Assembly (NCBI GenBank): GCA_965261885.1
Contig: CBDHDY010000043.1
Span: 103,417-167,416, forward strand
Direction: 5' to 3'
DNA length: 64,000 nucleotides
Source: Dehalococcoidia bacterium
GTDB lineage: Bacteria; Chloroflexota; Dehalococcoidia; Lucifugimonadales; UBA3495
In this document: positions 5,070 to 43,875 of the stretch, in pieces
Position numbering within the stretch: the stretch's first letter is position 1
How the letters are laid out: the number at the start of each line of letters is the position of its first letter
Notes under the pieces: model-generated
The model's input: the letters and a program-made list of their open reading frames with translations, nothing else
Told to the model about the DNA's origin: nothing
Databases searched by the model: none
Translations under genes and position numbers: made by a program

Positions 5070-5170
5070 TCTTGCCTCCTTCCTTGCGAAACCTGTTCCG
5101 ATATTGTATTGCGCCAGTCAAACAGCGTTACTGCAAGGTCCAGGGCCGTTTAGTTGTTCCCTCTCCTTAC

Positions 5171-6862
5171 CCCGAATCCACCGATAGAGGACGTCAGGTT
5201 AGCGACCTGAAGTGGTCAAAGGGTGCTCCTCTGAATCTGGGATAATGGTTTTGCAATAAAAAACCGACCCCAGAAAAGGAGCACCCAATTGATGCTACCA
5301 CGCAACCACCCCGACCGTATTCGCATCGTCTTTGACGACCACCGTCTGGTGGCCAATGCCGGCCTGCTCCTGCCGGCCACTCTCGCCCAACACCTGGGCC
5401 TGGGGGAACTCGTTGACCGTCACCTCAATCTCGGCAGCGCGCCGGGCCGGGCCAACGCCGGCGACAAGATGATGACCCTGGTCGCCTCTGCCCTGGCGGG
5501 CGGCGACTGCATCGACGACGCCGATGCGCTGCGCGCCGGTGGGACGGCCGGTGTTCTCGACTGTAGGGTCAAGGCGCCATCCACCCTGGGCACCTTCCTG
5601 CGCAGCTTCCGGTGGGGCCACGTCCGCCAGCTGGACCGGGTGAGCCGGGAACTGCTGGCCCGGGCCTGGGCCGCTGGGGCGGGACCCGGCGACGGGCCGC
5701 TGACCATCGACCTGGACTCCACCATCTGCGAGACCTACGGTCTGGCCAAGGAGGGCGCACGCCACCACGGCTACACCGGCAAGCGGGGCTATCACCCGCT
5801 GCTGGCCGTGGCCGCCGGCACCGGCGACGTGCTGATGTCCCGGCTGCGCGAGGGCCGGGCCAACACTGTTCGGGGCGCCGCTCACTTCCTGCGCGAGACG
5901 GTGGGACGGGTGCGCTACGCCGGCGCCAGGGGCCGACTCACGGTGCGGGCCGACAGCGGCTTCTATGCCCACGCCATCGTCGCCGTCTGCCGCAAGATGG
6001 ATGTCCGCTACTCCATCACCATCCGCCAACACAAAAGCCTGCGCAATCTCATCGAGGCCATACCCGAGACGGATTGGACGCCCATCCCCTACTGGATGGA
6101 CGGCGCCGCCGATGTGGCCGAGACCACCTACACTCCCTTTGAGAGTGAGCCCGGCGCTGCCCCGGTGCGGCTCATCGTCCGGCGGGTGAAGCCCACGCCC
6201 GGTTCCCAACTGGCCCTGTTCGCCAGCTACAGCTACCACGGCTTCATCACCGACCGGGATGAGGAGACGCTCGATCTGGAGGCTGACCATCGCCGCCACG
6301 CCGAGATCGAGAACGCCATCCGAGACCTCAAGTACGGCGTCGGGCTGAACCACCTGCCGTCCGGCCGATTCGCTGCCAACGGGGCCTGGCTGGCCGTCCA
6401 AGTGCTGGCGCATAATCTGGCCCGTTGGGCAGCGCGCATCGGTCTGGGCGAGCAACTGGTGACCACCAAGACCCTGCGGCGACGCTTCTTCTGCCTGGCC
6501 GGACGGCTCACCCGCTCGGCCCGCCGCCTCACACTGCATCTGCCACAGCGCTGGCCTTGGGAAGCCCAGTTCAGCAGCGCCCTGGCCCGACTGCGAGCCA
6601 CCCCACTCCCAGCCTGACGGCGCTGTCCGCAACCGCCCCAACACCTCCAAACTCGCGTCCGCCCCGCCCGCGAGTGCATCCTGCTGCGTCCGATCTCACT
6701 ATCACGCGATTCCCAGCCTCCATAGACCGCTCTCCAGGTCCGGTGCGGCTACTGAAAACCCTCGCGGGGTCTCATCGGTCCAATGGAGCCCAGGCTTTCT
6801 CCCTTGCAGGCTCCCTCATCCCAATTTGCCCAGCATTCACGCCCCCCATCGGTGGATTCGGG
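5171..6862 (+). mobile_element. intact IS1380-family insertion sequence
   Basis: Perfect 15-bp terminal inverted repeats: CCCGAATCCACCGAT at 5171-5185 and ATCGGTGGATTCGGG at 6848-6862. Flanked by the direct repeat CTTAC (5166-5170 and 6863-6867). Carries a single transposase ORF. Confidence 0.9.
5289..6617 (+). CDS. IS1380-family DDE transposase
   Basis: 442 aa starting MMLPRNHPDRIRIVFDDHRLVANAGLLL, a typical IS1380 N-terminus. An ATG is also present at 5292. SD AGGAG at 5277-5281. Confidence 0.9.
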   Translation: MMLPRNHPDRIRIVFDDHRLVANAGLLLPATLAQHLGLGELVDRHLNLGSAPGRANAGDKMMTLVASALAGGDCIDDADALRAGGTAGVLDCRVKAPSTLGTFLRSFRWGHVRQLDRVSRELLARAWAAGAGPGDGPLTIDLDSTICETYGLAKEGARHHGYTGKRGYHPLLAVAAGTGDVLMSRLREGRANTVRGAAHFLRETVGRVRYAGARGRLTVRADSGFYAHAIVAVCRKMDVRYSITIRQHKSLRNLIEAIPETDWTPIPYWMDGAADVAETTYTPFESEPGAAPVRLIVRRVKPTPGSQLALFASYSYHGFITDRDEETLDLEADHRRHAEIENAIRDLKYGVGLNHLPSGRFAANGAWLAVQVLAHNLARWAARIGLGEQLVTTKTLRRRFFCLAGRLTRSARRLTLHLPQRWPWEAQFSSALARLRATPLPA

Positions 6863-6968
6863 CTTACCGGGAAGGGTCAGGGTGGGGGGAGAAATCCTGG
6901 CAAACAGAAACGCCAAAGCCGCAAGAACTCACTCTCACCCCAGCCCTCTCCCTCAGGGAGAGCGAGAA
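6863..6968 (+). repeat. structured intergenic repeat, copy a (3' part; the 5' hairpin arm is at 5159-5170, separated by the IS1380)
   Basis: Joining 5159-5170 to 6868 onward gives CCCTCTCCttacCGGGAAgGGTcAGGGTGGGGGgaGAAATC...CACCCCAgcCCTCTCCCtcaGGGAGAG. This aligns with copies c and d. Confidence 0.75.
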
Positions 6969-7323
6969 TTAAACGACCCTGCACGCATCGGAGAGGGTCA
7001 TAATTTCTACCCGAACCGATGGCAGGTGACGGCGGAAGACCCCAGAGGGGGTCCTTCGCCAGGGTGTACTCCATCAGCCCAGAAAACAGCCCATAAAACC
7101 TCTGGAACCGCGTGGGTTAGAGGTTTATCAGTAGCTGCGCAGCGGCTTACCCAGGGTCGCTCCGGTGCACACAGTGCCCCCGGCGAAGGTAAACGGGTCG
7201 TTGACGATGAAGAATACGATGCTAAGACTCCAGTCCGGCGGAGGTTGCTTATTCTTTCTGGCTCCGTCGGCTTATCCCGCCAATGGGCATGGCGCGTCCT
7301 CAATCATTTAGGGTCGGCTGGTG

Positions 7324-7941
7324 CTACTCCAACCACTGGACGAAGTTGGATACCGGGGTGCGCTGAGACGGAGGGTCTTCGGCGGGGTAGCCAATGGAGA
7401 GCATGGTTGCCAGCTCCCAATCGTCCTCGGCGCCCAGTGTCTTTGCCAGGTCCGGGTGGCGGGTGGGCCCGCCGGTTTCCCATGTGACAGCCAGGCCCTC
7501 GGCCACTCCGGCCAGGGCGATGTTGTGAGCGGCGCAACAGACCGACGCGTAATTCTCCCGTGTGCCCTCGTCGTCGCGTCCGGGAGTGGAATACATGTAG
7601 ATGATCACCGGGGTCTTGAGCAACGAATCCCGGGTGGCCTCGGCGCGCTGTGCGTTGCCGCTACGTTGCAGGGCGAAGTCATGGGCCATCCCGGCCACTT
7701 TTTCCAGCGCCGCACTCCCCTGCTCCAGGATGAAAAAACGCCAGGGCTCGGTGAGGCGGTGGTTCGGCGCCCAGATTGCCGTATCCAGCATGCGGGCCAG
7801 CGCATCCCTGGGCACCGGCTGGTTCTTGAAGTCCCAGGCCATGCGCCGGCGATAGAGAGCGTCGTAGACGCTGACATTGGTATCAGGGACGGTGCAATCG
7901 TCGAACCCCAGTTTTTTCGTGCTCCTGGGCTCGCTGGACAT
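7324..7941 (-). CDS. nitroreductase family protein
   Basis: 205 aa with ..PVPRDALARMLDTAIWAPNHRLTEPWRFFIL... SD GAGAGGAGG. Confidence 0.85.
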   Translation of the reverse strand: MSSEPRSTKKLGFDDCTVPDTNVSVYDALYRRRMAWDFKNQPVPRDALARMLDTAIWAPNHRLTEPWRFFILEQGSAALEKVAGMAHDFALQRSGNAQRAEATRDSLLKTPVIIYMYSTPGRDDEGTRENYASVCCAAHNIALAGVAEGLAVTWETGGPTRHPDLAKTLGAEDDWELATMLSIGYPAEDPPSQRTPVSNFVQWLE

Positions 7942-8148
7942 AAGGGCCTCCTCTCTTAGATCGAGTTGGTTGAGTTGCCTGGGTTGAGTCGGTTCATCCC
8001 TCCCGTCGCCCCGGAGTTAGTCCCGGAGTTAGTCTCGGATAAACAGATCGAGCCGGTCCCGTTAAATCAAGGACCGGCCCGTCCGGTTGCCTGGCGTTGA
8101 CAGGCCGGGCTTTCAGTGAGCGATTGTGATCATCAGGAGAGCGGGCGA

Positions 8149-9429
8149 TTAGCTCAGTCCGAACTGCTCCCTTGCGTTACCGCCCATCATCCGGGCTATG
8201 ACTGCCCGATCCACGTCTGCCTGGGACAAAGTCTGGATGGCATCCCAGGCGCTGGACGTGTCGTGATGGGGGTAGCGGGACCCCCATACGATTTTCTTTT
8301 CGAAAGAATAGGGAAGCTCTTGGATCAGCCGCTCCTCGGCGTCGAACCCCAGCATCACGCGGCCTTCATCCCAGGTCTCTTCGGGTTCGGTGCTGACGGG
8401 GTAGTAATGCTGGAGCGGAATAACCCGGGTCGAAGCCTCCATTTTTTCCAGCACCTCCTCCATCCAGGAGGCTTTACCGTGAGCCATCACCACTTTCATC
8501 TCCGGGAATCGCTCCATCACGGTATAGCCTATGAGGGTGGAGGCAACGAACAGGTGATTGTCCAGCCAGTTGGACAGAATCGGTGCCAGGGGGTGCCCCA
8601 GCGCGACCATTCCAGTTGCCGGGGACACGCGGTTGCGGTCGTCAGTGCCGCCACCGGCAAATGCTCCGCCGCCGCCGCCGTTCAGGGCAGCGGTCTGCGT
8701 GAGGCGCCCCTTCACCTTTTCGATGAATGGCCCGTGGGAAGTCCATTCGGGGTTCCACAGACCGGCGGTGGGATGCACGGCGGCGGCCAGCCCCAAGCTC
8801 TCCAGCTCCGCCCATAGGGGGTCGTAGTAGGGGTGGGTGAAGTAATGCCCCTCCATGAACATGGGGCGGATGAATGCCCCCCGGAAACAGCGGATACCGG
8901 CGACGCGCCGCAACTCCGCCAAGGCGAAGTCCATGTTCCTGAGGGGAACCATGGCAGCGGCAAACAGCCGATCGGGACCGGCCTGGCAGAAGTCAGCAAC
9001 CCAGTCGTTATAGGCCCGGGCAAGCGCATAGGAAACGTCAGGGTCCTCCACCAGATGAAACCCTTCGGCGAACCAGGTGGGATAGATGAACGCCTTGTCT
9101 ATGCCCATGGCGTCCATGTCCCTGAGCCTCGCCTGCGGGTCAACGGCTCCCTCGCTCATCGGGTGGCGTATGTCCGGGTCCAGATCGCCGACGGCGTCCC
9201 AGGTCATACCGGGCTTCCAGATAGCATGGCGGGGAATGTTTGGGTTGCCGTTGTCCCGGAACACCTGTCCGTTGATCTTCAGGTACGAGTCGAACTGCCC
9301 CTCCTCTCGCCAGAGAGCGTGCTTGCCCAGGACCCGGTATTCGGGCTCCAGGTACTTCTCCCACACTTCGCGGGGCTCCACCACATGGGAGTCGCTGTCA
9401 AATACCTCGAAGTCTTTGCTGGTCGTCAT
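8149..9429 (-). CDS. amidohydrolase_2 family metal-dependent hydrolase (ACMSD-like)
   Basis: 426 aa. N-terminal FDSDSHVVEPREVWEKYLEPEY signature. Tandem with a paralog upstream. Confidence 0.85.
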   Translation of the reverse strand: MTTSKDFEVFDSDSHVVEPREVWEKYLEPEYRVLGKHALWREEGQFDSYLKINGQVFRDNGNPNIPRHAIWKPGMTWDAVGDLDPDIRHPMSEGAVDPQARLRDMDAMGIDKAFIYPTWFAEGFHLVEDPDVSYALARAYNDWVADFCQAGPDRLFAAAMVPLRNMDFALAELRRVAGIRCFRGAFIRPMFMEGHYFTHPYYDPLWAELESLGLAAAVHPTAGLWNPEWTSHGPFIEKVKGRLTQTAALNGGGGGAFAGGGTDDRNRVSPATGMVALGHPLAPILSNWLDNHLFVASTLIGYTVMERFPEMKVVMAHGKASWMEEVLEKMEASTRVIPLQHYYPVSTEPEETWDEGRVMLGFDAEERLIQELPYSFEKKIVWGSRYPHHDTSSAWDAIQTLSQADVDRAVIARMMGGNAREQFGLS

Positions 9430-9454
9430 CGTGACTGTCCCAAGGGTGTTCAGG

Positions 9455-11999: not shown

Positions 12000-12682
12000 G
12001 CAAAATCCATCGCGCCGCTCACGTCAGCGAAGCCCTGCGGCGGCACGCTTGCGTAAGCGCCGGAACATGCCCAGTCCTGCACTGATGTGCGTCTGTGTAC
12101 TATGTAAGTCTGTGTAAATGGAAATTGGGCAACTCAACATTCCCCGAAGTATTCCGATGAAATTTATCGGCAAGGTGACACGGGCCTGGATGCAGGCGAA
12201 TCAGTAGAAGTAATCGGTGAAGACGAGGGACGGAACTTTACCGCTGTCAGCAAACGGGACAGAGGCGGACGCTGCCCCCTTGCGGCGCTCGGGTCTGAGG
12301 GCTGTTCGCATCAGTAGTTACGCTGAACCAAACAGCGAATTGGCCCCGATATATATATGTAGAAAGTGCCCCTGTATTATTGGGTTTTCAAGTTACAGAT
12401 ACGATACGAGCCGTGCTTTGGGAGATTTTACACCGTTTTTGCGTGGTTTTTCAGCGGGAACGCCAGCAGGTCGGCGGTTTAGTTTCGCCTCCGTTGGCTG
12501 TCTTGGCTGGTGATACACGTCGCTGCCGCAGGTCCTGAAAGAGCCGCTGGGGTCCGTACCGTAGTTGCCACACTTCCAGCTCACCATAATGTTCCTCAGG
12601 AGTCGGCGTTGCCGCCAAGGTGCCCACCAACGAGGCCCGGATTTTGGTTTGGTTGCCCGCTCCGAGTACCGTTCAGGGCGTG

Positions 12683-12814
12683 CTGGTAGTCCGAAATCAT
12701 TGCAATGATGGGTTGATTGGTACGGGGCCGTTGCACGGACAAACCTGTTTCACGGAAACGATGGCCGAGCAATCCGGCGTTTCGCCCGTCATTTCAAGGT
12801 TCTTGGTCTACTAG
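12683..12814 (+). mobile_element. MITE-B copy 1 (132 bp including flanking CTGG/CTAG)
   Basis: Non-coding. Termini are CTGGTAGTCC...GGTCTACTAG (about 10-bp TIR). Contains the 14-bp palindrome ATCATTGCAATGAT. Most positions match the reverse complement of 13065-13196. Confidence 0.65.
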
Positions 12815-13064: not shown

Positions 13065-13196
13065 CTAGTAGACCAACATCCTTGAAATGACGAGTGAAAC
13101 GCCGGATTGTCTGGCCATAGATTCTGTGAGCCAGGTTTGTCAGGGCAACGGCCGCGTACCAATCTACCCATCATTACAATGATTTCGGACTACTAG
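13065..13196 (-). mobile_element. MITE-B copy 2 (inverted relative to copy 1)
   Basis: Termini CTAGTAGACC...GGACTACTAG with CTAG on both sides. Aligns end to end with copy 1 in reverse complement. Confidence 0.65.
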
Positions 13197-13245
13197 CCAT
13201 GTGGTCCGCAGCCGTCACTCGTTTGTCAAGGGTCTTCAGGGTCTC

Positions 13246-13560: not shown

Positions 13561-13599
13561 CCCTACCCTCTCCTTTGACGTCCCCACTCCAACCATTTA

Positions 13600-13805
13600 C
13601 TGCCCTCAGTCATCACGTCAGCGGTACACGGTCACGCCGCCCCAGTGGCCCAACATCTCGGCGCCATTGGCACCCCCAGTTAGCGCAGTCTCTGGGGTTC
13701 AGCCGGGAGCGTACCCCGTGCGTGGCCACCTTGAATCACGTGTTTCGCCGCATAGAAGTTGACGCATTCGAGACAGCCCTGGGCCGCTGGGCCAAGAATG
13801 CCTGG
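13600..13805 (+). pseudogene. ISAs1-family transposase, N-terminal-region fragment (opposite orientation)
   Basis: Reads ..LAQSLGFSRERTPCVATLNHVFRRIEVDAFETALGRWAKNAW, resembling the ISAs1 N-terminal associated domain. Truncated and frame-broken. Confidence 0.55.
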
Positions 13806-13934
13806 GGGAGGGGGCAGGGTCTCTTATTCTGTAAACTCAAGAGGTCGGAGAAGCTGAAGTGCCGCTGTCGCGCGATGGTGCCATTCGTTCGGGGACGCCC
13901 CCACCCTAACCCACCCCTGGTAGGTAGGGGGAAC
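13803..13934 (+). repeat. structured intergenic repeat, copy b
   Basis: G-tract GGGGGAGGGGGCAGGG, inner hairpin CTCTT..AAGAG, C-tract CGCCCCCACCC, terminal hairpin CCCCTggtaggtAGGGGGAAC. Confidence 0.6.
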
Positions 13935-14037
13935 AACCAAAAGAACACCAGGCGTCAGGGTGTCCAATTGACTGCCAACGGTGGAACAGTTGACAGTCTC
14001 TACTGAACAGCGAGATAAGGCCTGGGCTGGCTCAAGA

Positions 14038-16467
14038 CTATTCCGTCAGCCCCAGGCTGGCCAGCATGAAGGCATATTCCTCTGCGATTTCGTACCACCG
14101 GGCGGTCCGTCCCGACCTTCCACCGTGTCCGGAACCCATGTCGGTTTTCAGCAGCACCAGGTTGTCGTCGGTCTTGACTGCCCGCAGCTTGGCCACGTAC
14201 TTGGCAGGTTCCCAGTACGTAACCCGCGGGTCGTTAAGGCCCGCCGTAACCATGACCGGCGGATAGTCCCCAGGCATGAGTTGGTCGTAGGGGGAGTAGG
14301 AACGAATGTATTCGAAGGCGTCCTTGTCCTCGATGGGGTTGCCCCACTCGGGCCACTCAGGCGGAGTCAAAGGCAGGTCGGCATTGAGCATGGTGTTGAG
14401 CACATCCACGAAGGGGACCTGGGTGACCATCGCGCCCCAGAGTTCCGGCGCCTGGTTCACCGCAGCACCCATCAGGGTCCCTCCGGCGCTGGCCCCGGAA
14501 ATGGCGATGCGCCCCTCAGAACCGTAGCCCTGGTCTATCAGGTGGCGGGCCACGTCTACGAAGTCGTTGAAGGTATTGGTCCGCTCGAACAGTTTGCCGG
14601 ACTCGTACCAGTGGAAACCCAGGTCGTCGCCTCCCCGTACATGGGCGATGGCGAAGATGAACCCCCGGTCTAGCAGGGACAGACGGGCGGAGGAAAAGTA
14701 AGGGGAAACAGCGCTGCCGTAGGCCCCGTAAGCATAGATATACAGGGGCGCCGAACCGTCCAGCGGCGTGTCCTTGTGGCGCACGATGGACACCGGTACC
14801 TGCACACCGTCCCTCGCCGGAGCCAGTTCCCGGTTCGTCACAAACTGAGAGGCGTCATAGCCGCTGGGAATTTCCTGCACCTTCCGTTGTTCCAGTTCTG
14901 TCGTTTCGATGTGGTAGTCAAAATCCGTCCACGGTGTGGTCATTGAGGTATAGGAAAGCCGGAGCGTGTTGACGTCGAATTCGGGATCGAACTGAATGTA
15001 GGCGGTGTAGGCCTCCTCGGGAAACTCGATGTGCGTCGATTCCCCCGCACGGTCGATGATGCGGACCTGGTCCAGGCCGTCGATCCGTTCCTCGATGGCG
15101 ACGTAATCTTCGGTTACGTGAAAATACTGTATGTACAGGGACTCGGAACCCTGCAGGAGGGTTTCCCATGACTCCTCGGTGGGGTCGTCCTCGGGCGCGA
15201 CTGCGATGCGGTAATTCTGGTGATTGTCGTTGGTTATGATCACGAAGCGGTCGCCCTGGTGGTCAATCGAGTAGTCGTGGCCCGGCCTCCTTGGGGCCAC
15301 CAGCACCGGTTCGGCTGCCGGGTCTTCCGCGGCGATCAGCCGGTACTCTGAGGTGACATGGTCGCCAGCGCCGATGATGACGTATTCATCGGAGTTGGTG
15401 CCGGTTACCCAGACGAAGAATCCTGGGTCGGTCTCCTCGTAAACCACCGTGTCGTCCTCGACCGGGTCACCGAGGACGTGCCGCCGAACCTGAAACGGAT
15501 GCCCGGTTTCGTCCAGGAAGGTGTAGAAGAATGAAGAGTCGTCGCTGGACCAGATGGCCTCTCCTCTCGTTTCCTCGATCTCCTCCTGCATCAATTCACC
15601 AGTCTCAAGATCCTTGACCACCAGGATGTACCGTTCCGACCCGTTGGTGTCGGTGCTGTAGGCCACCTTGGAGCCGTCGTTGCTCACCGAAAGAGATCCC
15701 AGGCGGAAAAATTCCAAGCCCTCCGCCAGCGCGGGCTCGTCCAGGAACACTTGGACGTTGTCGGTGGGGCCCTCCCGCGCGTCCTCGTCGGATTTGGGCC
15801 AGCGCAGCCACTCGCGGTACTCGCTTCCTTCGCCGTACCTCCACTGGTAATACCAGTCCCCGCTCTTCCTGGGCAGGCTGGTCAGTTCCGCGGGTTGGCG
15901 TCCCTCGATTTCCTCGTAGATGGTGTCAATCAGGCCCTGGTGGGATGCCATGCTGGCATCGAAATACACGTTTTCCGCCACCAGGTAAGCCAGCACATCC
16001 TCGTCATCGACCGTCGGGTAGTCCTCATCCTCCAGCCAGTGCCAGGGATCCTCAACCGTAATGCCGTGATGGGTGTAGCTGTAAGGACGTTCCCGGGCGA
16101 TTGGCGGGATGAGTTCGGGGACCTGCGTTGCAACAGGTGTTGGGTCCGGATCTGGAGTAGACTCGGGCGTGGCTTCTGGAGTCGGCTCAGGTGTGGGAGC
16201 CGGAGTAGGCTCCGGCGTCGCTTCAGGAGTGGGAGCCAAAGTAGGCTCCGGCGTCGGCTCAGAGGTGGCCACGGGCGTTTGCTTGGCGGTAGGTTGGGGA
16301 GTTGACGTGGCAGCAGGCTCCGGTGTCGGCGCCAGTGTAGCGGTGGGTTGGGGAGCTATGGTGAGGGCCGAAGAGGGTTGCGTTGGCTCGCTTGCGCACC
16401 CGGCAAAAATGAACGCAGCAAGAGCGAGGGCGGTAAGCACAATCAGTGCGTAGTGGGGACGTGACAA
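14038..16467 (-). CDS. S9A prolyl-oligopeptidase family, oligopeptidase B-like, lipoprotein with Pro/Thr/Glu-rich linker
   Basis: Catalytic GASAGG and N-terminal propeller (..YSYTHHGITVEDPWHWLED..). I prefer the TTG start at 16467 (GGGAGA SD 8 nt upstream), giving LSRPHYALIVLTALALAAFIFAGC (lipobox). The track ATG at 16647 lies inside repeat copy c. Confidence 0.85.
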   Translation of the reverse strand: MSRPHYALIVLTALALAAFIFAGCASEPTQPSSALTIAPQPTATLAPTPEPAATSTPQPTAKQTPVATSEPTPEPTLAPTPEATPEPTPAPTPEPTPEATPESTPDPDPTPVATQVPELIPPIARERPYSYTHHGITVEDPWHWLEDEDYPTVDDEDVLAYLVAENVYFDASMASHQGLIDTIYEEIEGRQPAELTSLPRKSGDWYYQWRYGEGSEYREWLRWPKSDEDAREGPTDNVQVFLDEPALAEGLEFFRLGSLSVSNDGSKVAYSTDTNGSERYILVVKDLETGELMQEEIEETRGEAIWSSDDSSFFYTFLDETGHPFQVRRHVLGDPVEDDTVVYEETDPGFFVWVTGTNSDEYVIIGAGDHVTSEYRLIAAEDPAAEPVLVAPRRPGHDYSIDHQGDRFVIITNDNHQNYRIAVAPEDDPTEESWETLLQGSESLYIQYFHVTEDYVAIEERIDGLDQVRIIDRAGESTHIEFPEEAYTAYIQFDPEFDVNTLRLSYTSMTTPWTDFDYHIETTELEQRKVQEIPSGYDASQFVTNRELAPARDGVQVPVSIVRHKDTPLDGSAPLYIYAYGAYGSAVSPYFSSARLSLLDRGFIFAIAHVRGGDDLGFHWYESGKLFERTNTFNDFVDVARHLIDQGYGSEGRIAISGASAGGTLMGAAVNQAPELWGAMVTQVPFVDVLNTMLNADLPLTPPEWPEWGNPIEDKDAFEYIRSYSPYDQLMPGDYPPVMVTAGLNDPRVTYWEPAKYVAKLRAVKTDDNLVLLKTDMGSGHGGRSGRTARWYEIAEEYAFMLASLGLTE

Positions 16468-16564
16468 ACTGGAACTCTCCCGGTTTTTGGTGTAGGTCGA
16501 GTATTTTATAACGAAACGTTCCAACTGGTCGAATGCAAAGCAGATGTCTCCAGGTATTTTGATA

Positions 16565-16674
16565 CTCCCTCTCTCTCCGGGGAATGGTAGGGTGGGGGTG
16601 AAATCGCGGGATGACACAATGTTGCCGCGACAATGGTGGCGCCCCACCCAGACTCTCTTCCTGAGAGAGGGAAC
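16565..16674 (+). repeat. structured intergenic repeat, copy c
   Basis: CTCCCTCTCTCTCCGGGGAAtGGTAGGGTGGGGGTGAAATCGCGGgatgacacaatgttgCCGCGacaatggtggcgCCCCACCCagaCTCTCttcctgaGAGAGGGAAC. Confidence 0.75.
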
Positions 16675-16828
16675 TATTCACAGACCCAGAGGCTTCTGGA
16701 AGGTTGGCAGTCGCCTCCAACAATCAATTACAGTGGTATCCACGGACTCGACCGTTTGTGAGATTCCGGCAGCCGGTTTGCGGTGAGCTGGCCAAATTAT
16801 CGAGCTTGGGTAGCAGGCGGAGGAAAAG

Positions 16829-25409: not shown

Positions 25410-26430
25410 CTATTCGCCGAGTTTCTCCACTACGATCGACAGCCGGGCTACCGGATTACGCCAATCGTGCACAGCGGGGTTGAGATCGGACTTTTCGCCC
25501 CCGTGAATCCCAGCGTGAACGTAGATATGCCCTTCGGCTTCTGACTCGTCTTCGGCGTGCTTGCCGCAGGGTGGACCCGGAATGTAGTCGCAGTCCTCGC
25601 TGTTGGCTTCGCTGCCGGCGTCGTAGGCATTCAGGTTGATGGTGCGCGAGCTGGAGACGTCAAGGCCGCTTGCGCCGATGAAAGCGTCGTTGGTAGTAAC
25701 CAGCATACTGGCAAAGGAAACCAAACTGTTTCCGTCGGTGACCTCGAAACTCATTGAAACAGTTGCACCGGGCGGTATGGGACCTTCGTCCAGCGCTACC
25801 ACCATCGTCTCGCTGATGTCGGGGTTGTCCTCCGATGCCCATTCAGACAGCAGGCCGGATGCGTCGGCGTCTTCGGCCATCTTCGCCAAAGAAATGCTGG
25901 CTGGTTCACCAAGCGTGTACAGAGGGCCGGCACCCGCGCCATGCCTTGTCACAAAGACGGGCGATAGTATTTGTCCGCGCGTCAGGTTTGTGATGGACAT
26001 CGTGACCATTACCTGGCTGCTTTCAGCAGGCGACTCCGGAAGGGCAGCATTCCCTGTCTCTCCCTGAGGCCCCTCTGGCCCCGCTGGCCCCGGGGCGCCA
26101 TCCTGACCCACTGGCCCCTGCAGGCCCCGCCTCTCCCTGCAACCCCTGAGGCCCCTGCGGCCCTGCCGCGCCGTCCTGACCCGCAGGCCCCTGCGGCCCC
26201 GCCGCCCCTGCCTCTCCCTGCAACCCCTGAGGCCCCGCCGCCCCTGCCTCTCCCTGCAACCCCTGAGGCCCCGCCGCGCCATCCAGGCCCGCTGGCCCCT
26301 GCGGCCCTGCAGCCCCTTCACTGCCAGCACATGCGGCAACCAAGAGCACTCCCACAGTTAGCAACGAGATAAACCATAGCCGCCCAAGGGCACCTGACAG
26401 AATCCTACCTGAGTAAGCACCAAGCTTCAT
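25410..26430 (-). pseudogene. collagen-like (G-X-Y) lipoprotein with C-terminal spondin_N-like domain, +1 frame break in the repeat
   Basis: Frame A starts at ATG 26430 (SD GGAGG) and gives signal plus lipobox LLVAAC, then GAAGPQGPAGLDG... Frame B (track 25410..26339) continues GPVGQDGAPGPAGPEGPQGETG, then ITNLTRGQILSPVFVTRHGAG... The two frames join if one C of the run at 26115-26118 is removed. Confidence 0.7.
26195..26280. repeat. 36-bp tandem repeat (2.4 units) inside the collagen-like gene
   Basis: GGCCCCGCCGCCCCTGCCTCTCCCTGCAACCCCTGA at 26195-26230 repeats exactly at 26231-26266. It encodes GLQGEAGAAGPQ twice. Confidence 0.85.
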
Positions 26431-29137: not shown

Positions 29138-30139
29138 GTGCGTTTGATGAAAGTAGACATCAGGGTGCCCGTCGGGCTGCCGGTCAAGGAAACCGCGGAT
29201 TTCATCGCGGGATGTGAGGCCGCAGGGTTTTCAGGGGTCGGAGTCCATGACCATCAGCACAGCGGGCGGGACGTTTTCCTCACCCTTGCCCTGGCCGCGG
29301 AGCGGACCTCGCGGCTCGCCCTTTACCCTGCAACCACCAACCCGGTCACGCGGCATCCGATGGTCCTGGCGTCGCTGGCCCACTCGCTGGAGGAGATCGC
29401 GCCGGAGCGGGTACGCCTGACCGTGGGACCCGGCTACCTCGCCGTCGGCAACATCGGCAGGCCGCGGGCCACGGTGGAGGCCATGCGCCGGGCCGTCCTG
29501 ACCATGCGCCGCCTGCTGCGGGGCGAGCGAGTGGAGTTCAACGGGGTGGAAACCCGGCTGCGCAACCTGAGCGACAAGCCCACACCAATATTCATGACCG
29601 CCGCTGGCCCAAGGATGGTGGAATTGGCCGGGGAGGTTGCCGACGGCGTGCTGCTGCTTGTAGGCCTTCACCCCAAGGCCGTCGAAGCGGCCCGCCGCCG
29701 GCTGGAAATCGGAGCGGCACGGTCCGGACGCAGCCTCGACGGTTTCCAGACGATCTTCATCACCCCGACCACGGTGTCGGATGACGGGCCGGCTGCCCGT
29801 CGCTTTCCCCAGCAGTGGTTCCGGCCTGACCAGCCGTACCTGAAATATCCCAGCGATTCGAACCTCGTGTGGCTGCGGGAAGCTGGCATTGACCTGGCCG
29901 ACGATTTCGTCCCAGAGAGTATTGGAGATGCCCAGGCAGCCGAAATATGCGATGCCTTCGGTCTGTTCGGCACGTCCCGGGAATGTCTGGCCAGACTGAA
30001 GCGGGCCAGGGACGAATCGGGCATCGATCACGTTTTCATCTTTCCCACCCACACCCAGGAGGGTGGTTACGACATGCCGCAGGCCGAGGTGGACGCCTTC
30101 CGGGAGAAAATCATCCCGGGTCTGAGCGCCTTTTCCTAG
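29138..30139 (+). CDS. LLM-class flavin/F420-dependent oxidoreductase (paralog 2)
   Basis: 333 aa from the GTG at 29138; an alternative ATG is at 29147 (MKVDIRVP..). The TAG stop (30137-39) lies inside the CTAG flank of MITE-A. Confidence 0.85.
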   Translation: MRLMKVDIRVPVGLPVKETADFIAGCEAAGFSGVGVHDHQHSGRDVFLTLALAAERTSRLALYPATTNPVTRHPMVLASLAHSLEEIAPERVRLTVGPGYLAVGNIGRPRATVEAMRRAVLTMRRLLRGERVEFNGVETRLRNLSDKPTPIFMTAAGPRMVELAGEVADGVLLLVGLHPKAVEAARRRLEIGAARSGRSLDGFQTIFITPTTVSDDGPAARRFPQQWFRPDQPYLKYPSDSNLVWLREAGIDLADDFVPESIGDAQAAEICDAFGLFGTSRECLARLKRARDESGIDHVFIFPTHTQEGGYDMPQAEVDAFREKIIPGLSAFS

Positions 30140-30291
30140 CAGCCTGTCCGAGGATTAGATTTTGGAGACGAAAAGCGCCACTGTCTAATCGCATTGGTGA
30201 CTAATAGGCTCCAGTACACCAGTATTCTGAATAATTCACGTTATTAACGACGATATTCGCTTAGAACATTGTTTCTCGGACGGGCTGCTAG
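30136..30291 (+). mobile_element. MITE-A copy 1 (148-bp core plus CTAG on each side)
   Basis: TIRs CAGCCTGTCCGAG...CTCGGACGGGCTG. No ORF. Exact reverse complement of 61149-61304. Confidence 0.85.
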
Positions 30292-31871: not shown

Positions 31872-31942
31872 TTTGAGGGATTTTCGTCGTGGGCCGCACG
31901 GGTGTCAATGGCGGTGCGCTATATCCACAGGGCATTTTGATT

Positions 31943-32073
31943 CTCCTTCCCTCTTCAGGGGAGGCCCTTCGGCAGGCTGAGGAGGCGTGGGGATGAAATC
32001 GCAGGTATCGGCACCTCTTAATGCTTCGGAGGTACGCCCCCACCGCAACCCTACCCCAAAGGGGAGAGGGAAC
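31943..32073 (+). repeat. structured intergenic repeat, copy d
   Basis: CTCCTTCCCTCTTCAGGGGAGG...GGAGGCGTGGGGATGAAATCGCaggtatcggcACCTCttaatgcttcGGAGGTaCGCCCCCACCgcaaCCCTACCCCaaaGGGGAGAGGGAAC. Confidence 0.75.
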
Positions 32074-32165
32074 TACTGAAAGACCCTGTCCATACCCGTG
32101 GCCCACTGGCCGGAGCCTTGGATACTCCCGTAAAATAAGCGCCAGCAAGCTGCAAAGGAGAGACC

Positions 32166-38290: not shown

Positions 38291-38515
38291 GGGCCACCAC
38301 CAAAAATCTTGATATTCAACTGGGACGAATGACCACTCGCAGGCGGTCAGGGTTGGCCCGCCTGGGCGAAGGAGCTCTTCAGGCCGCCGTCGTTTTGTCC
38401 AAGCCTCGTCTTCGCCGTCCGGTCGTACGGGCCATCGCGTTGACCGCTGCCGCGACTGCCAATGGAAGGCTTGAGACCAGGGACGCTGTGCCAGCGTGCC
38501 CAACGGCCCAAGGCA

Positions 38516-39487
38516 TCACACCTTGGACCAGACCTGATCGGCCAGCAGTTCCATATCGCGAATCATCTCTTCTTGGCTGCTGGCCAATTGGGCAACCGGT
38601 ACGAAGGCGGCGATCAAGTGGCTTACTCCCATGTCCTCGTACCGCCTGATGTCCGACGCTATCTGCGCGGCGCTGCCGGTGAAGGTTGGCCGGTCTGGGG
38701 AGTCAGGCATACCGCCGTTGGTGTGGAGGTTGTAGCCATGCATTCGGCAGATAACCTCCACCGAGCCCTGGGGCCTGCTAGCCCGTTCCACGTACCTGTC
38801 CAATCTCTTCATAGCGGCAACGATCTGCGCGGGAGTCGTTAGAGGGAACTGGTTGTTGGTCCCGATCGGTTGCCAGCCGTCGCCCAGCTCGGCGGCGCGG
38901 CGCATGGCCCGGCGGCTCTCGCCGCCCACCCAGATGGGGGGATGCGGCTTTTGCACCGGCTTGGGCAGGAAGGACAGGTCAGAAAAGCTGTGATACTTTC
39001 CTTCAAAGCTCGGGGAGTCGCTGGTCCAGAGTTCCTTGAATATCCGGATGTATTCGTCAGTAACCGCTCCTCGTTCTTCAAAGGGTGGCGTTTGCAGGGC
39101 CTCGAACTCTTTTCGCAGCCAGCCAACCCCGACACCCACGGTCATCCGGCCATTGGACAGCACGTCGATGGTGGACAGTACTTTGGCGGTGAGAACCGGG
39201 GGCCGGTGAGGTACGATCATCACGCTGGTTACCAGCCTGATGGACTCAGTCTGACCGGCCAGAAAGGCGAGCATGGTGAGCTGCTCCGTGGCCTCATTTG
39301 TGTCAGTAGCCGGGAAAACACCGGACTGGGTATAGGGGTAAGGCGAATCGACATCATTGGGCAGAACGACGTGGTCCGGAAACATCATGACCGCGAAGCC
39401 GAGTTCGTCCGCCTTCCTGGCAATGGGGATGATGTTTTCGGGCAGGGCCAAGTCGCCTCTTGAAGGCAACATGATTCCGTATTTCAT
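38516..39487 (-). CDS. LLM-class F420/flavin-dependent oxidoreductase (paralog 4)
   Basis: 323 aa starting MKYGIMLPSRGD...GFAVMMFPDHVV. SD GAGGAGG. Confidence 0.85.
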   Translation of the reverse strand: MKYGIMLPSRGDLALPENIIPIARKADELGFAVMMFPDHVVLPNDVDSPYPYTQSGVFPATDTNEATEQLTMLAFLAGQTESIRLVTSVMIVPHRPPVLTAKVLSTIDVLSNGRMTVGVGVGWLRKEFEALQTPPFEERGAVTDEYIRIFKELWTSDSPSFEGKYHSFSDLSFLPKPVQKPHPPIWVGGESRRAMRRAAELGDGWQPIGTNNQFPLTTPAQIVAAMKRLDRYVERASRPQGSVEVICRMHGYNLHTNGGMPDSPDRPTFTGSAAQIASDIRRYEDMGVSHLIAAFVPVAQLASSQEEMIRDMELLADQVWSKV

Positions 39488-39562
39488 GGCTGGACCTCCT
39501 CTAAACTATCCGCTCCCCAAAGCTGCAGGCGCGGTTGGAGGAATACGTAGTGACTCACCACG

Positions 39563-39598
39563 AGAAATAAAACGGGCGGAATGCAGGCCGATTCCGCC
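39563..39598 (-). terminator. intrinsic terminator inside the 5' region of the LLM gene
   Basis: Minus strand reads GGCGGAAT-cggcctgc-ATTCCGCC followed by CGTTTTATTTCT. It lies 76 nt upstream of ATG 39487. Confidence 0.55.
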
Positions 39599-39943
39599 TT
39601 CACTGACAAGGGCGAGACCTACCACCTAACGAGTCAGTATCCCACCACTGCCTGCCCGATTATACAGCCCAGCCCCTGGGCAGGACTTCGAGATGATGGG
39701 CTGCGACATAGAGATGGGAAATTCGCTGAACATTGCCCCTGATTGGTCCTGGGCTCTGCTAACCAACCAGTTGCCCGCTTGAGTCATCCTGGGTTAGAGT
39801 CCACGCCAGAACAGGCGGATGACCCATAGTCCCTTTCGACACTCCGACTCCGGATGTTGAGCCTCAAATTCCCGCTTGCACGCTCGATAAGAATAAGTCA
39901 GCTTTGAAAATTCCCGGTAAATTCCCGGTGGAGGTAAATAGCA

Positions 39944-40705
39944 ATGCCGTTCTATGAAAGAGGCCCCAGCCGCATTTACTACGAAGAGGCCGGTTCGGGA
40001 TTCCCCCTTATGATCATTCCGGGTGGCGGACTTAATTCCAGCCTTGCATCCCTTACGACGTCGGTGCCCTTCAATCCAATGTTGACCTACAAAGACGACT
40101 TCCGATGCATCGCCGCCGACCTGCGAAATGCCAACGGAGGCCAGTCCAGCGGCCCACTGGAGATCGACCGCCCCTGGGACGCCTACTCCGAGGACCAGCT
40201 TGGGCTGATGGACCATCTCGGCATCGAAAAGTTCGGGGTCATTGGCTTCTGCATCGGCGGGCCCATGATCCACAACCTGCTCAGGCTGGCCCCGGACCGC
40301 ATCGTGGCTGCGGCGTTGATGCAGCCCAGTGGGTTCAGGCCGGAGACGCCGGATATTTTCTACCAGAACAATATCACCGGGTGGGGGCCGCCCCTTTGCG
40401 AGAAACGTCCTGAAATCACGATGGACACGGTCCATGACTTCCTGACCAGTATGTATACCGACCGCGCCGACTTCGTTTTCACCGTTTCCCGCGATTTCGT
40501 GCGTGCCCTGCAGACACCACTGCTGATAGCACCCGACGATGTCCCGGCGCATCCCTACGCGTGCGCGATGGAAGTAGCCAACCTCGCCCCGAACTCCGAG
40601 GTGACAATCTATCCCTGGAAAGACACCCAAGAGCATATCGACGAGGTTGTAGCTCACGCCCGGCGCTTCCTGAAGACCCATCAACCGGCAACGGCAACAG
40701 CCTGA
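39944..40705 (+). CDS. alpha/beta hydrolase
   Basis: 253 aa with ..GFPLMIIPGGGLNS..FGVIGFCIGG... SD GGTGGAGGT. Confidence 0.8.
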   Translation: MPFYERGPSRIYYEEAGSGFPLMIIPGGGLNSSLASLTTSVPFNPMLTYKDDFRCIAADLRNANGGQSSGPLEIDRPWDAYSEDQLGLMDHLGIEKFGVIGFCIGGPMIHNLLRLAPDRIVAAALMQPSGFRPETPDIFYQNNITGWGPPLCEKRPEITMDTVHDFLTSMYTDRADFVFTVSRDFVRALQTPLLIAPDDVPAHPYACAMEVANLAPNSEVTIYPWKDTQEHIDEVVAHARRFLKTHQPATATA

Positions 40706-40856
40706 CAAAACCATACACCCAGACCCATTTGAGACCCCGCCCGCAACCGGCAGCTTCCCGTTTCAGGCAGCCAGGCCAGGGAACCCATCCTTCCAGCACC
40801 GTACGCGCGTATTCCAGTCCTCCGCACCGTAGGGGCGCATTCCAAACCGAAACGGC

Positions 40857-40885
40857 GTAGGGGCGGGTTTCAAACCCGCCCCTAC
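40857..40885. terminator. hairpin GTAGGGGCGGGTTTCAAACCCGCCCCTAC between convergent genes
   Basis: Perfect 12-bp stem. Same core as 20363-20384. Confidence 0.55.
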
Positions 40886-40898
40886 CACTACCACCTGC

Positions 40899-41993
40899 TT
40901 AGGAACGCAGTTCCTGACCCGTGTCCGACGCCTGCTTGAGGGTATCGATGAAGCGGTGCAGGTCAACCGCATCATCGAACGTCGGCGCGCGGTTCTGTCC
41001 GGTTCGGATTGCCTCGGCGAACAGGGTATACAACTGCCCGATGTTGAAGGGATCGCCCTTGGGGAAGTCCGAAGGCACATAGACGAAGCGCTCAGGTATA
41101 TCCAGGTCCTGCAACTCCTGGCTTCCCCTTGCGCCCTGCACCCGCAGCATCTCGCCGCGCTGCGAGGAGACGCTCCCAGTAGTGATCAACGTACCTTCCC
41201 GTCCGTAGATCTCCATTCGATAGCCGCTGCCGGCCCAGGGGGCAGCCCCGACATGGACCGACGCTGCCGCGCCGCTCTCCAACTGTCCGCTGACTCTCAC
41301 ATTGTCCGGGGATGTTACTTCCACAAACTGCTTGGTATCGGTCTCGTACCACTGCTTGGCCTGGGTGCTGACCATGCACGCCACCCGCGCGAAGTTACCA
41401 GCCACGAAGCGCAGGGCGTCGATGACGTGTCCGTTGGCGATGGTCAGTGTATGCGCGCCCAGGCTGGCGTCGCGCTGCCAGGTGCGGCTGGAAGGGCGTT
41501 CCAGCGCGCCGTCGCGCATGGTGATCACTGAACACGAGAGCACCTCGCCCACGTAACCGGCCTCAATTTGCTCCTTGACGAACAGCAGTGCCGGACTGAC
41601 TCGCGATTGCAGGCCCACTGCCGTTTGCACACCCTTGGCCCGGGCCAGGTCTGCAAGCTCCTCGGCTTCGGCGGTATCCTGTCCCAGGGGCCACTCGGTG
41701 AGAACGTGCTTGCCCGCCTCGATGGCGGCCTTGGTTGCCTCATAGTGCGATGGCACCCGCACAACCACGGCCACCGCTTCGATCTCCGGCGACACTGCCA
41801 TTTCCCGGAAATCGTGGAAGGCCAGCTTCGCTCCAAAGGCTTGGCGGGCCTCTTCCGCGCTCTCGGGCCGGGTGGTGCAGACCGCTGTGAACTCTACATC
41901 CGGGCTGGCCAGTAGCGCCGGGAAGTGCGACTGGGTGGCCCAGGTCGAGTTTACGTTCGCACCCACAAACCCCAAGCGAATCTTGTTAGTCAT
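40899..41993 (-). CDS. Gfo/Idh/MocA family oxidoreductase
   Basis: I prefer ATG 41993 (MTNKIRLGFVGANV), with GGAGG 7 nt upstream. The track start is at 42020. Confidence 0.85.
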   Translation of the reverse strand: MTNKIRLGFVGANVNSTWATQSHFPALLASPDVEFTAVCTTRPESAEEARQAFGAKLAFHDFREMAVSPEIEAVAVVVRVPSHYEATKAAIEAGKHVLTEWPLGQDTAEAEELADLARAKGVQTAVGLQSRVSPALLFVKEQIEAGYVGEVLSCSVITMRDGALERPSSRTWQRDASLGAHTLTIANGHVIDALRFVAGNFARVACMVSTQAKQWYETDTKQFVEVTSPDNVRVSGQLESGAAASVHVGAAPWAGSGYRMEIYGREGTLITTGSVSSQRGEMLRVQGARGSQELQDLDIPERFVYVPSDFPKGDPFNIGQLYTLFAEAIRTGQNRAPTFDDAVDLHRFIDTLKQASDTGQELRS

Positions 41994-42421
41994 TACGCGA
42001 CCTCCATTGATTGCTGGCATCCTTCATTATCATTGCTGTAGCGGCGGCCAAAGTGGCGGGCAGCAACCCGAACCGCGTATTCCACTTCAGGCAAGAGGCC
42101 TGCGAAACCCTGTTGTCCCAGACACCAATGGGTGAAGGCCTCACCTTTGATGGCTCCAGCTCCGCGCACGGGGCCGAGATGGCCGGCTGGCGATTGAAGT
42201 CAGATGGGCATTGGCCGGTTTTGTTACAGTCCCGCCGGTAGGACGGCCCCTGCCTGGAATGGGGACTCTGGTACTGATGAAATCGGCTACCCCATTGGCA
42301 GAAGGGCGGGCGGGTGCCCCCACCGTAGTTTTCCTCCCAACTAAAGACGAGTGAGGCGATTGGACTTTGACTACGCAAATCTGCCATCCCACCACCGGGT
42401 CCGTTATCACGGCACAAGGAC

Positions 42422-43555
42422 TTACCCCAGGGATTTGGGATTGATCGGAGTGGACATGGCCTGGACTTCAGGAAGGACTTTCTCGGCGAAGAGTCTGAGG
42501 CTTTTCTCAGCCTTGTCTCTGGGCATCCCACCGTAAAACATGTGGACCACGATCTTCTCCAGGCTGATCGTGCTCTGCAGCGATTTGATCCTTTCGATTA
42601 TCTGGTCCGGCGTGCCGATGGGTTGGGTTGCGCGCCGGGCGGCGAAACTGGCATCGGCGGTACCGACGTCTGCAGTCTGGCGTGCCAGGTATTCCTCGTA
42701 GCCGTGGATGCCTTCGTAGCCCGGATTGTTCCACTCGAAGTAGTGGTGCTGGGCGGCAGTGAGCTGGTTGTGGAAGTAGGTCCTCCCCTCTTCGGCTTCC
42801 TCAGCGGTCTCGGCACAGTACATCCACAATAGAGTGGTAGGCTGGTCGGGGGGAAGGCCGAGTTCTCTCCGAATCGCGTTGAACCGTCTCACCTTGTCGG
42901 TCATCACCTCGACATCGTCGCCGGCAACAAACATCTGCCCAAGGCCGTTTTCGGCGGCCATTCTCGCGGACGCCTCTGTCGTAAACGCAACCTTGATATC
43001 CTTCGTAAGTTCACCCTTATGGCGGGCCTGTGGCCGGATGGTGGTTGGTGGAATGTCGTAGACCTCGCCCTTGAACTCGAACCGCTCCGCCCCATCAGAT
43101 GCCTTGATGGCGTTGATCACATCGTAGAAATACTTGTGCGACTGTTCTATTGGATAGCCCAGCGAGGCATACTCGTGAGGGGCGATGCCACGGCCGATTC
43201 CCAGGTGGAGGCGCCTGCCTTTCAGCAGGACGTCGAGCATGGAAATTTCGGAGGCCAGCCGGACCGGATTCCACCACGGGGCGACGATGACCGCCGTGCC
43301 CACATCAACGCGGCTGGTGCGGCCCGCCCAGTACGCCAAGTACTGCAGAGGGTTGGGCTGCATCGAATAGGCGGATCCGTAGTGTTCGGTTGCCCAGATG
43401 GAATCGAACCCGAGCGGCTCGACCAGCTCCCCCATATACAGGGTGTCATCCAGGTTCGCGGCGTCCGGTACCTCCGGAGGGCGGTCATAGTCTTCCGCCA
43501 TCAGACGAGGCCAGTCCCCTTGGTTGTAACCAGTGACCATCACTCCACAGTGCAT
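42422..43555 (-). CDS. LLM-class flavin-dependent oxidoreductase (paralog 5)
   Basis: I prefer ATG 43555 (MHCGVMVTGYNQGDW...), SD GGAAGGAGG. The track extension to 43942 runs through repeat copy e. Confidence 0.85.
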   Translation of the reverse strand: MHCGVMVTGYNQGDWPRLMAEDYDRPPEVPDAANLDDTLYMGELVEPLGFDSIWATEHYGSAYSMQPNPLQYLAYWAGRTSRVDVGTAVIVAPWWNPVRLASEISMLDVLLKGRRLHLGIGRGIAPHEYASLGYPIEQSHKYFYDVINAIKASDGAERFEFKGEVYDIPPTTIRPQARHKGELTKDIKVAFTTEASARMAAENGLGQMFVAGDDVEVMTDKVRRFNAIRRELGLPPDQPTTLLWMYCAETAEEAEEGRTYFHNQLTAAQHHYFEWNNPGYEGIHGYEEYLARQTADVGTADASFAARRATQPIGTPDQIIERIKSLQSTISLEKIVVHMFYGGMPRDKAEKSLRLFAEKVLPEVQAMSTPINPKSLG

Positions 43556-43716
43556 CCCTGTATTCCTCCTTCCGATCAACATGCTCAATCCAGATGCAGG
43601 TTGATCCTCAGCACGGCAATTCGACATCCCAGTATAACTGTTCCTTCGGGCAACCACCGGGAATCGGAATTCGCATCCCCGTTGGCCTCGAAAGGTATAA
43701 GACAGTGTGCGGCAGT

Positions 43717-43875
43717 CACCAAACCCTCTGGGAGAAGGTTGGGGTGAGGGCATCCCACTGGCTTTGCAGGAACAACGAAGGCGATCCAACCATGGCCTGA
43801 TTAGGTTGGAATTGGTATTTCCCACACCCTCTACGGGCGATAGCCCCGCGAAGGACGCCAGGAGAAGGTGGAATC
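43717..43875 (+). repeat. structured intergenic repeat, copy e (most diverged)
   Basis: AACCCTCTgggAGAAGGTT, GGGGTGAGGG, inner hairpin CCAACC..GGTTGG, CCCACACCCTC, CGGGCgataGCCCG. Confidence 0.5.

Follow-up and report, generated by a model that had tools for sequence, protein, structure and literature searches.

Dispersed intergenic repeats in a Dehalococcoidia genome are probably decayed, mostly paired members of the BoxC/PIT/TM_ECO class

What are the short pyrimidine- and purine-rich repeats that lie scattered between the genes of a 64,000-nucleotide stretch of Dehalococcoidia DNA (contig CBDHDY010000043.1 of assembly GCA_965261885.1, positions 103,417 to 167,416; this whole stretch is hereafter the window)? 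An earlier note, made from the sequence alone, described them as a five-copy family (copies a to e) of intergenic repeats, all in the same orientation, whose hairpins are kept while the stem sequences differ, and took this pattern as a sign of selection on an RNA or DNA fold. The analysis presented here points to another answer. The repeats are probably selfish or neutral copies of an intergenic DNA repeat of the BoxC/PIT/TM_ECO, or 'intrastrand triplex motif', class, and the window copies appear to be degenerate, decayed members of that class, mostly arranged as inverted pairs and residing outside the Proteobacteria. The apparently conserved RNA hairpins are the product of sequence composition and chance.

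The TM_ECO motif, earlier known as BoxC and termed PIT by Hoyne et al., follows the pattern CCCTCNCCC N3-6 GGGNGAGGG N3 GGGNGAGGG, and 3610 occurrences of it were counted across 262 proteobacterial genomes (Holder et al. 2015, PMC4666352). Escherichia coli K-12 carries 23 copies, which are always intergenic and in five cases combine a type-B module with a type-A module as an inverted pair. As single-stranded DNA, E. coli oligonucleotides adopt a purine-motif triplex in vitro, as judged by circular dichroism and nuclear magnetic resonance (NMR), and NMR of the whole module revealed a triplex, not a G-quadruplex (G4). The motif displays neither promoter nor terminator activity, has no known regulatory role and is linked to local genome variability, while a purine-motif triplex cannot form in RNA (all PMC4666352). 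In the literature nothing on the G-type blocks was found beyond Holder et al., and Chloroflexi are not mentioned in those parts of that article and its supplements that were available (PMC4666352).

The basic module of the window repeats consists of a pyrimidine block CCCTCTCC, a short loop, a complementary purine block GGGAGAGG, a loop of 2-3 nt and a second G-rich block GGGTGGGGG, which mirrors the purine block. The left module of copy a (a-left) is ∼86% identical to the E. coli type-B module over 36 nt, and d-right aligns over 40 nt with the type-A module, so that the left-right order is the same as in the E. coli pair. Similarly, c-left and d-right align with canonical modules from a Dehalococcoidia metagenome-assembled genome (MAG; OY761449.1, locus L064), and the alignments include the flank CAGTAGTTCCCTCTC and the tail or junction GGGTGGGGGTGAAATCGC, the latter lying within the left arm of copy c. 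For the local alignments against the E. coli pair and the L064 modules, 0 of 1000 shuffles reached the observed score in each comparison. A module hidden Markov model (HMM) built without the window copies detected a-right, a-left and e-left with E values of 5.5e-5, 6e-4 and 7e-3, respectively. A fuzzy version of the triplex-motif pattern, allowing 2, 2 and 1 substitutions in the three blocks, identified four modules in the window and a fifth, a-left, in the intact copy a of assembly L124, compared with a mean of ∼0.45 per shuffled window.

Full homologues within the window are limited to copies a, c and d, each about 140-165 nt long, which nhmmer with the family HMM retrieved at E values of 1e-19 to 1e-34. 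An HMM built from a, b, c and d recovered those four alone in the window at E < 1e-5, and matched copy e weakly and on the opposite strand. A covariance model gave 91-149 bits to a, c and d, which were its training sequences, found copy b weakly and on the minus strand only (E 0.07) and had no match at copy e. The proposal of a five-copy family therefore holds for a, c and d, while b is one half-module and e a 28-nt relic; in other words, a, c and d are pairs, and b and e solo modules. The full unit comprises a left arm, a centre of exactly 42 nt that starts (T/A)GAAATC, and a right arm in which the left-arm module is inverted. From its outer end the left arm contains the outer repeat, the pyrimidine block, a loop, the purine block, a 2-3-nt loop and the G-tract. 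That the G-tract is nearly identical in the three copies, and that a C-tract complementary to it follows, was correctly recognized in the earlier note, and the sequences quoted there are all found at the positions given. The extents assigned to the copies were too short, as homology in a, c and d runs on into outer terminal inverted repeats (CAGGG…CCCTG). In a multiple alignment of the three copies the left end reads CAGGGyaTTTTGAT…TCCCTCTC, and the right end, GAGAGGGAACTAyTsAAAGACCCTG, is its inverted copy. As a terminal pair, CAGGGyaTTTTGAT... and ...GAAAGACCCTG (repeat I22, ∼26 nt) are 85% complementary between a-left and d-right, and similar termini occur at all six arm ends.

The arms are 48-73% identical to each other, without left/right clustering. 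Co-evolution of the two arms within a copy was considered and rejected, with identities of 0.58-0.70 within and 0.48-0.73 between copies. The centres retain a weak similarity (P 0.01-0.03). The element is quasi-palindromic and its own model matches both strands, the forward match being much the stronger with both the HMM and the covariance model; the common orientation claimed for the five copies is real for a, c and d only. As these three have the same asymmetric layout and the same centre length, their sequences indicate that the whole ∼150-nt unit was dispersed as one.

The view that the stems covary under selection is not consistent with the folding data. RNAalifold on the five copies returned −7.3 kcal/mol with a covariation term of +3.3, which is a penalty. 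Compared with dinucleotide shuffles only copies a and c were more stable (RNA z −4.8 and −3.0; copy c as DNA, z −3.4), and b, d and e were at or above the shuffle mean energy (copy d, z −0.5). The minimum-energy fold of a and c is one long hairpin that joins the left arm to the right arm, not three local hairpins. In a consensus of a, c, c' (copy c of strain L125) and d, this long-range palindrome has 93% of its cells paired; when partners were shuffled within columns, 88% of the cells still paired, since with wobble pairs permitted any G/A tract can serve as partner to a C/T tract. Such pairing by composition explains the impression that hairpins are kept while stems differ: the first and terminal hairpins exist, and they pair by composition. 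The inner hairpins also exist in all copies, with best perfect stems of 4, 5, 6, 5 and 7 bp in a to e, and are no better than those of shuffled spacers (P 0.53, 0.60, 0.05, 0.33 and 0.04, which is chance level); they occupy different positions within the equal-length 42-nt centres and are thus not positionally homologous. A search of Rfam 15 yielded no match at the gathering score and, at E ≤ 5, none that overlapped the copies. What remains of the earlier proposal is a dispersed intergenic family whose blocks are built to fold, without the stem differences as proof of selection. The structured RNA reading is not supported; for the whole family, selection acting on a DNA fold is a plausible reading.

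A signal at the DNA level is provided by the relationship between the purine block and the G-tract. In a set of 41 distinct modules from many genomes, position 4 of the purine block and position 6 of the G-tract were A/A in 25 cases, G/G in 11, A/G in two and G/A in none (Fisher 6e-8, or 0.001 at one count per source), and the Watson-Crick partner of the covarying position was looser. This mirror covariation, a property of the family and not of the window copies alone, is in the register expected for the G*G·C and A*A·T triads of a purine-motif triplex. When each window module was scored for triads against 1500 background windows, the fewest mismatched triads were two (a-left, a-right and d-right) and the others had 3-5, with none for b-left; counts of 2-3 are rare in the background (P ≤ 0.0013 to 0.009), and copy e was not above background. 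With arms 48-73% identical and at least two broken triads in every module, the window copies are old and decayed. None of their modules conforms to the strict triplex definition, so that they would be degenerate members of the class.

Members of the family also occur outside the window. The sample of this organism amounted to ∼300 kb, including ∼180 kb beyond the window that were gathered via a multicopy IS5-like open reading frame (ORF). No exact database record was retrieved for the IS1380-type transposase, with either of two start codons, or for the DAO gene. Taxonomic hints from the sequences were confined to the Dehalococcoidia MAG that bears the element and a ClpB match of 70% nucleotide identity to an Anaerolineaceae MAG. 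The same metagenome assembly contains a solo canonical module (L131:1836-1868), one base off the exact TM_ECO pattern, and a 60-nt deletion derivative (L127:15828-15888) with both outer termini and one hairpin. A contig scan with the 16-mer GTGGGGRTGAAATCGC yielded 119 loci, mostly noise, as ∼500 chance matches are expected (2/4^16 x 1.19e12 positions). The 16-mer lay within a real module only at L064, L095 and L119, where its identity is by construction of the search, leaving the module around it as the independent evidence. Modules were also present at several other loci, and among the loci fetched they were found in many phyla. The window covariance model matched paired units of a delta proteobacterium MAG (L095, L119) and of Rhodanobacter (L060) with E values of 3e-8 to 1e-5. 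When metagenomes were scanned with a strict gapped pattern of 23 bases, five loci emerged, all of them solo modules, and no close relatives of the paired unit. As a side observation, five repeat loci lie in the 64-kb window and two in the ∼180 kb sampled elsewhere, a small and non-random sample, and the same stretch (5100-32100) holds several strain-variable insertion sequence (IS) insertions; this may be a plastic region in which the repeats cluster.

Several points weigh against assignment to the BoxC class. The exact TM_ECO pattern is matched by no window module, and none passes the ITxF rule (class II; C-G*G, T-A*A or T-A*T triads, a stem of at least 8, at most one mismatched triad and loops of 1-6). 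The module HMM by itself is insignificant for c, b and d (E 0.66-2.9), which are tied to the family only through copy a, L064 and pairwise alignments. Neither the 42-nt centre nor the long outer terminal repeats feature in the published description of BoxC, and the repeat survey of this organism covers ∼300 kb only. The covariation of purine block and G-tract could partly reflect two inherited subfamilies. Finally, the triplex is known in vitro and not in vivo, even in E. coli (PMC4666352).

Comparison of strains confirms the earlier view that copy a is split by an IS1380-type element, which is not part of the repeat. The body of the element (5171-6863; PF13701 DDE_Tnp_1_4, E 4e-59 in Pfam) was inserted at 5171 in the loop of the first hairpin, with the 4 bp TTAC duplicated at 5167-5170 and 6864-6867, and the empty site, an uninterrupted copy a, is present in three other assemblies of the same species (L124, L125 and L126). 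These empty sites also show that the window represents a strain variant of, and is not identical to, the European Nucleotide Archive contig ERZ25071132 ctg820263_98x_l. A second IS1380-type copy elsewhere is flanked by the target-site duplication TAAG. Every strain-level assembly retrieved (three or four) contains copies a, b and c, and copy c differs between strains at 6/138 positions, similar to its flanks. IS insertions within repeats were seen in copy a of the window strain and, with an IS5-like element, in copy b of strain L125. The idea that the ISs target the repeat was rejected, as both occur in unrelated contexts, the IS5-like element always at CTTAG/CTAAG and the IS1380-type element at TTAC/TAAG. 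An IS5/IS427-type element with DUF4096 and DDE_Tnp_1 ORFs lies at 47352-48209, likewise inserted at CTTAG; it is missing from that site in L002 and L003, present there in L004, and occupies at least seven other sites in the assembly.

According to the gene calls and Pfam, each of the five loci is intergenic, with those of c, d and e in divergent regions, in agreement with the earlier note. Its claim that the copies inflate ORFs as pseudo-peptides is borne out for a (…HPSPLPQGERE…) and c, where the mechanical ORF has 869 aa and the called gene 809 aa. That gene, encoding a peptidase S9, lies between copies b and c. At the orthologous peptidase loci of two relatives (∼80% amino-acid identity) no element is found on either side; the neighbourhoods differ, making this result supportive, not decisive. 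A role of the copies as terminators or promoters was also rejected: no terminator-like site was found within any copy, and the promoter scan was overall at background, two promoter-like sites near c and d falling between the element and the minus-strand genes.

Three further explanations have to be weighed. In the first, the unit is a miniature inverted-repeat transposable element (MITE), in which an external transposase recognizes the outer repeats (CAGGGyCnTTTnAGTTGTTCCC) and moves the whole unit, the triplex blocks being part of long terminal repeats. The ∼26-nt terminal inverted repeats with their 85% complementarity, the size of 140-165 nt and the intergenic position of every copy fit such an element, as do the asymmetric layout and 42-nt centre common to a, c and d, by which the unit spread whole, and the retention of both termini by the 60-nt derivative. 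Copy d is flanked on both sides by TCCA, but this is only a possible target-site duplication, and a and c lack any, leaving no consistent duplication in the family. Within the ∼300 kb sampled, neither near-identical copies nor an IS whose ends match was found; copies a, b and c show no presence/absence polymorphism among the three or four strain-level assemblies, and the same modules stand solo and in tandem in other genomes, unlike transposon terminal repeats. A MITE is therefore an unlikely explanation, if one to be taken seriously; it is also compatible with a BoxC identity because the copying mechanism of BoxC is not known.

The other two explanations concern what the modules fold into. 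A structured RNA with hairpins under selection, be it a small RNA or a 5' element regulating in cis, would account for the stability of a and c relative to shuffles, for the 93% pairing of a, c, c' and d with five pairs changed on both sides (2/500 shuffles), for an inner stem that is longer in one strain variant of c, and for the location of c, d and e in divergent promoter regions. It is very improbable in view of the positive covariation term for the five copies, the 88% shuffled baseline that follows from tract composition, the lack of excess stability in b, d and e, the chance-level and non-homologous inner hairpins, the scoring of the element on both strands, the empty Rfam search even at E ≤ 5 and the missing element at the peptidase genes of the two relatives. 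The promoter-like sites would, as a weak argument, place c and d outside the 5' untranslated regions of the minus-strand genes, and the mirror covariation is consistent with a purine-motif triplex, a structure that RNA does not adopt. The remaining alternative, that the G-rich halves fold as G4 in DNA or RNA and modulate neighbouring transcription, draws on the four G3 runs that the purine block and G-tract supply in canonical modules, and on the measurement of the same E. coli and Klebsiella sequences as G4 candidates (yjbD, KP-PGQ-5). In the window, however, the G3N1-7 x4 rule fits only a-left (6869-6889) and b-right (13898-13917), two of ∼8 modules; moreover, the NMR data of Holder et al. 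(PMC4666352) demonstrated a triplex for the whole module, and a G4 leaves the conserved pyrimidine block without a role. It is the least credible of the explanations considered.

The coordinates of the repeats, including the boundaries of the blocks in copy a, are listed in the table. The left arm of copy d is degenerate, with an insertion of ∼17 nt. The module proper of copy b, which is of the right type, spans 13896-13934, and what the earlier note had taken as its left half (13803-13890) is outside the family. Copy e resembles the E. coli module minus ∼6 nt (module HMM, E 0.007), and the remainder of the copy as first drawn (to 43875) shows no family similarity.

Table. Positions of the triplex-motif repeats and of their parts in the window
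Feature	Position	Strand	Remarks
Copy a, first 30 nt	5141..5170	+	Outer terminal repeat CAGGGCCGTTTAGTTGTT; intact copy known from other assemblies
Copy a, pyrimidine block CCCTCTCC	5159-5166	+	
Copy a, first-hairpin loop TTAC	5167-5170	+	IS target site
Copy a, remainder	6868..6981	+	Alignment; module HMM
Copy a, purine block GGGAAGGG	6869-6876	+	Followed by loop TCA
Copy a, G-tract GGGTGGGGGG	6880-6889	+	
Copy a, 42-nt centre	6890-6931	+	
Copy a, inverted right module and outer terminal repeat	6932-6981	+	HMM from other genomes only, E 5.5e-5
Copy b, single inverted module and outer flank	13896..13949	-	CGCCCCCACCC TAA CCCACCCC…GGGGGAAC
Copy c, full unit	16550..16691	+	Left arm 16550-16598, centre 16599-16640, right arm 16641-16691
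Copy d, full unit	31927..32090	+	Left arm 31927-31993, centre 31994-32035, right arm 32036-32090
Copy e, relic of one module	43724..43751	+	CCCTCT, ∼6 nt deleted, GGGAGAAGGTTGGGGTGAGGGC

The window contains other repeats and relics. At 13575-13811 (+) a shortened reading frame matches the end of the DDE_Tnp_1_assoc domain below threshold (E 1e-4; 22.8 bits, cutoff 32.3); this apparent relic of an ISAs1-type transposase ends exactly where the earlier note let copy b begin. The segment 26504-26634 shows 74-81% identity to positions 5206-5337 at the 5' end of the IS1380-type element, is not followed by a transposase gene and is probably an IS remnant; a weak, sub-threshold Rfam match to Ms_IGR-7 (E 4.3) falls on it. 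A 161-nt element is present twice in inverted orientation with 99% identity (30131-30291 and 61149-61309), and again at L001:5757-5917. It has terminal inverted repeats of its own (CTAGCAGCCyGTCCGAG…) and resembles a MITE that was active recently, with no relation to the triplex-motif repeats. A 133-nt inverted repeat (12682-12814 and 13065-13197; 86% complementary, ends CTAGTAGTCCGAAATCATTGCAATGATGGGT…) surrounds ∼250 nt, and strain L125 lacks 13072-13213, so that one arm is polymorphic. Five of the 11 G4-pattern matches in the window lie in a G+C-rich array at 26049-26353, which has 9- and 27-nt periodicity (…GGCCCCTGCGGCCCC…), is located inside a long ORF and may, on its minus strand, code for a collagen-like Gly-X-Y repeat. 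The peptidase S9 gene (14038-16467, minus strand) was called with 809 aa; many orthologues of ∼85% identity have 672 aa and cover 83% of it, and its first ∼137 residues may be unconserved or its start mis-called. Downstream of the peptidase gene of one relative (L142:8790-9010) lies an unrelated array of short repeats of the type AAATGACTCA(C/A).

If the repeats belong to the BoxC class, a mechanism at the DNA level can be outlined from the E. coli work (PMC4666352). In single-stranded or torsionally stressed DNA, as during replication or transcription, a module would fold to a hairpin, whose purine strand the G-tract would bind as a purine-motif triplex; an inverted pair may extrude as one long hairpin or cruciform. 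Such structures would stall replication and promote small deletions and local variability, and the neighbouring genes would be left unregulated by the copies. Any effect is most likely incidental and exerted through DNA, the window copies themselves probably being inert passengers in tolerant intergenic DNA.

A bolder possibility is that the paired unit (module, TGAAATC-type spacer, inverted module and outer repeats) is a mobile element in its own right, which crosses phyla and is copied by an enzyme nobody has identified. It is hinted at because spacer length is fixed within a genome (42 nt here, 29 nt in the delta-proteobacterial MAG and E. coli), because an identical 18-nt junction recurs in distant lineages, and because the asymmetric layout is shared; we nevertheless think it quite improbable. 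Should the unit truly be mobile, the spread of BoxC-type repeats, a question since the 1990s, could be approached through this long-read genome and its strain variants. The relevant literature reportedly also includes the work of Bachellier et al. in the 1990s and of Hoyne et al. in 2000. The fixed geometry and conserved outer ends of the paired form bear in any case on how such repeats propagate, and the repeat class, which Holder et al. recorded in 262 proteobacterial genomes, is now extended outside that group. The data also provide a caution: pyrimidine/purine-tract repeats of the BoxC class mimic covarying RNA hairpins and inflate ORFs with PSPxGER-type pseudo-peptides, and recognizing them avoids false noncoding RNA and protein annotation in high-GC metagenome genomes.

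Compared with known systems, the repeats share with bacterial G4 motifs the G-rich half of canonical modules, which conforms to G3N1-7 x4 and has been studied as such, whereas most window modules lack four G3 runs and the full module forms a triplex in vitro. MITEs and repetitive extragenic palindromes (REP), including bacterial interspersed mosaic elements (BIME), are likewise short, intergenic, palindromic, dispersed and sometimes paired, and have ISs inserted within copies. The window repeats differ from them in having neither target duplications nor near-identical copies, in that no cognate transposase or REP-associated tyrosine transposase (RAYT) gene was seen in ∼300 kb, and in that the two IS insertions follow the target words of the ISs themselves (TTAC/TAAG and CTTAG). 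Closer parallels are provided by the Dehalococcoidia MAG, which has the identical GGGTGGGGGTGAAATCGC junction and CAGTAGTTCCCTCTC flank and differs in carrying tandem and solo modules that pass the triplex pattern, and by the pairs of the delta proteobacterium MAG, which have the inner spacer and paired units in common with the window and differ in their 29-nt centres. From the BoxC/PIT/TM_ECO repeats of E. coli the window units are set apart by a non-proteobacterial host known from a metagenome, by the third block (GGGTGGGGG in place of GGGTGAGGG), by a spacer of 42 nt starting (T/A)GAAATC as against 18-29 nt, by longer outer terminal repeats, and by the two or more broken triads of every module, to which neither the strict pattern nor the ITxF rule applies. 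They have in common with them the three-block module and direct sequence similarity that includes the flanks, strictly intergenic location, solo and inverted-pair forms, deletion derivatives that retain a hairpin, and a spacer of conserved length with a type-B-like module to its left and a type-A-like one to its right.

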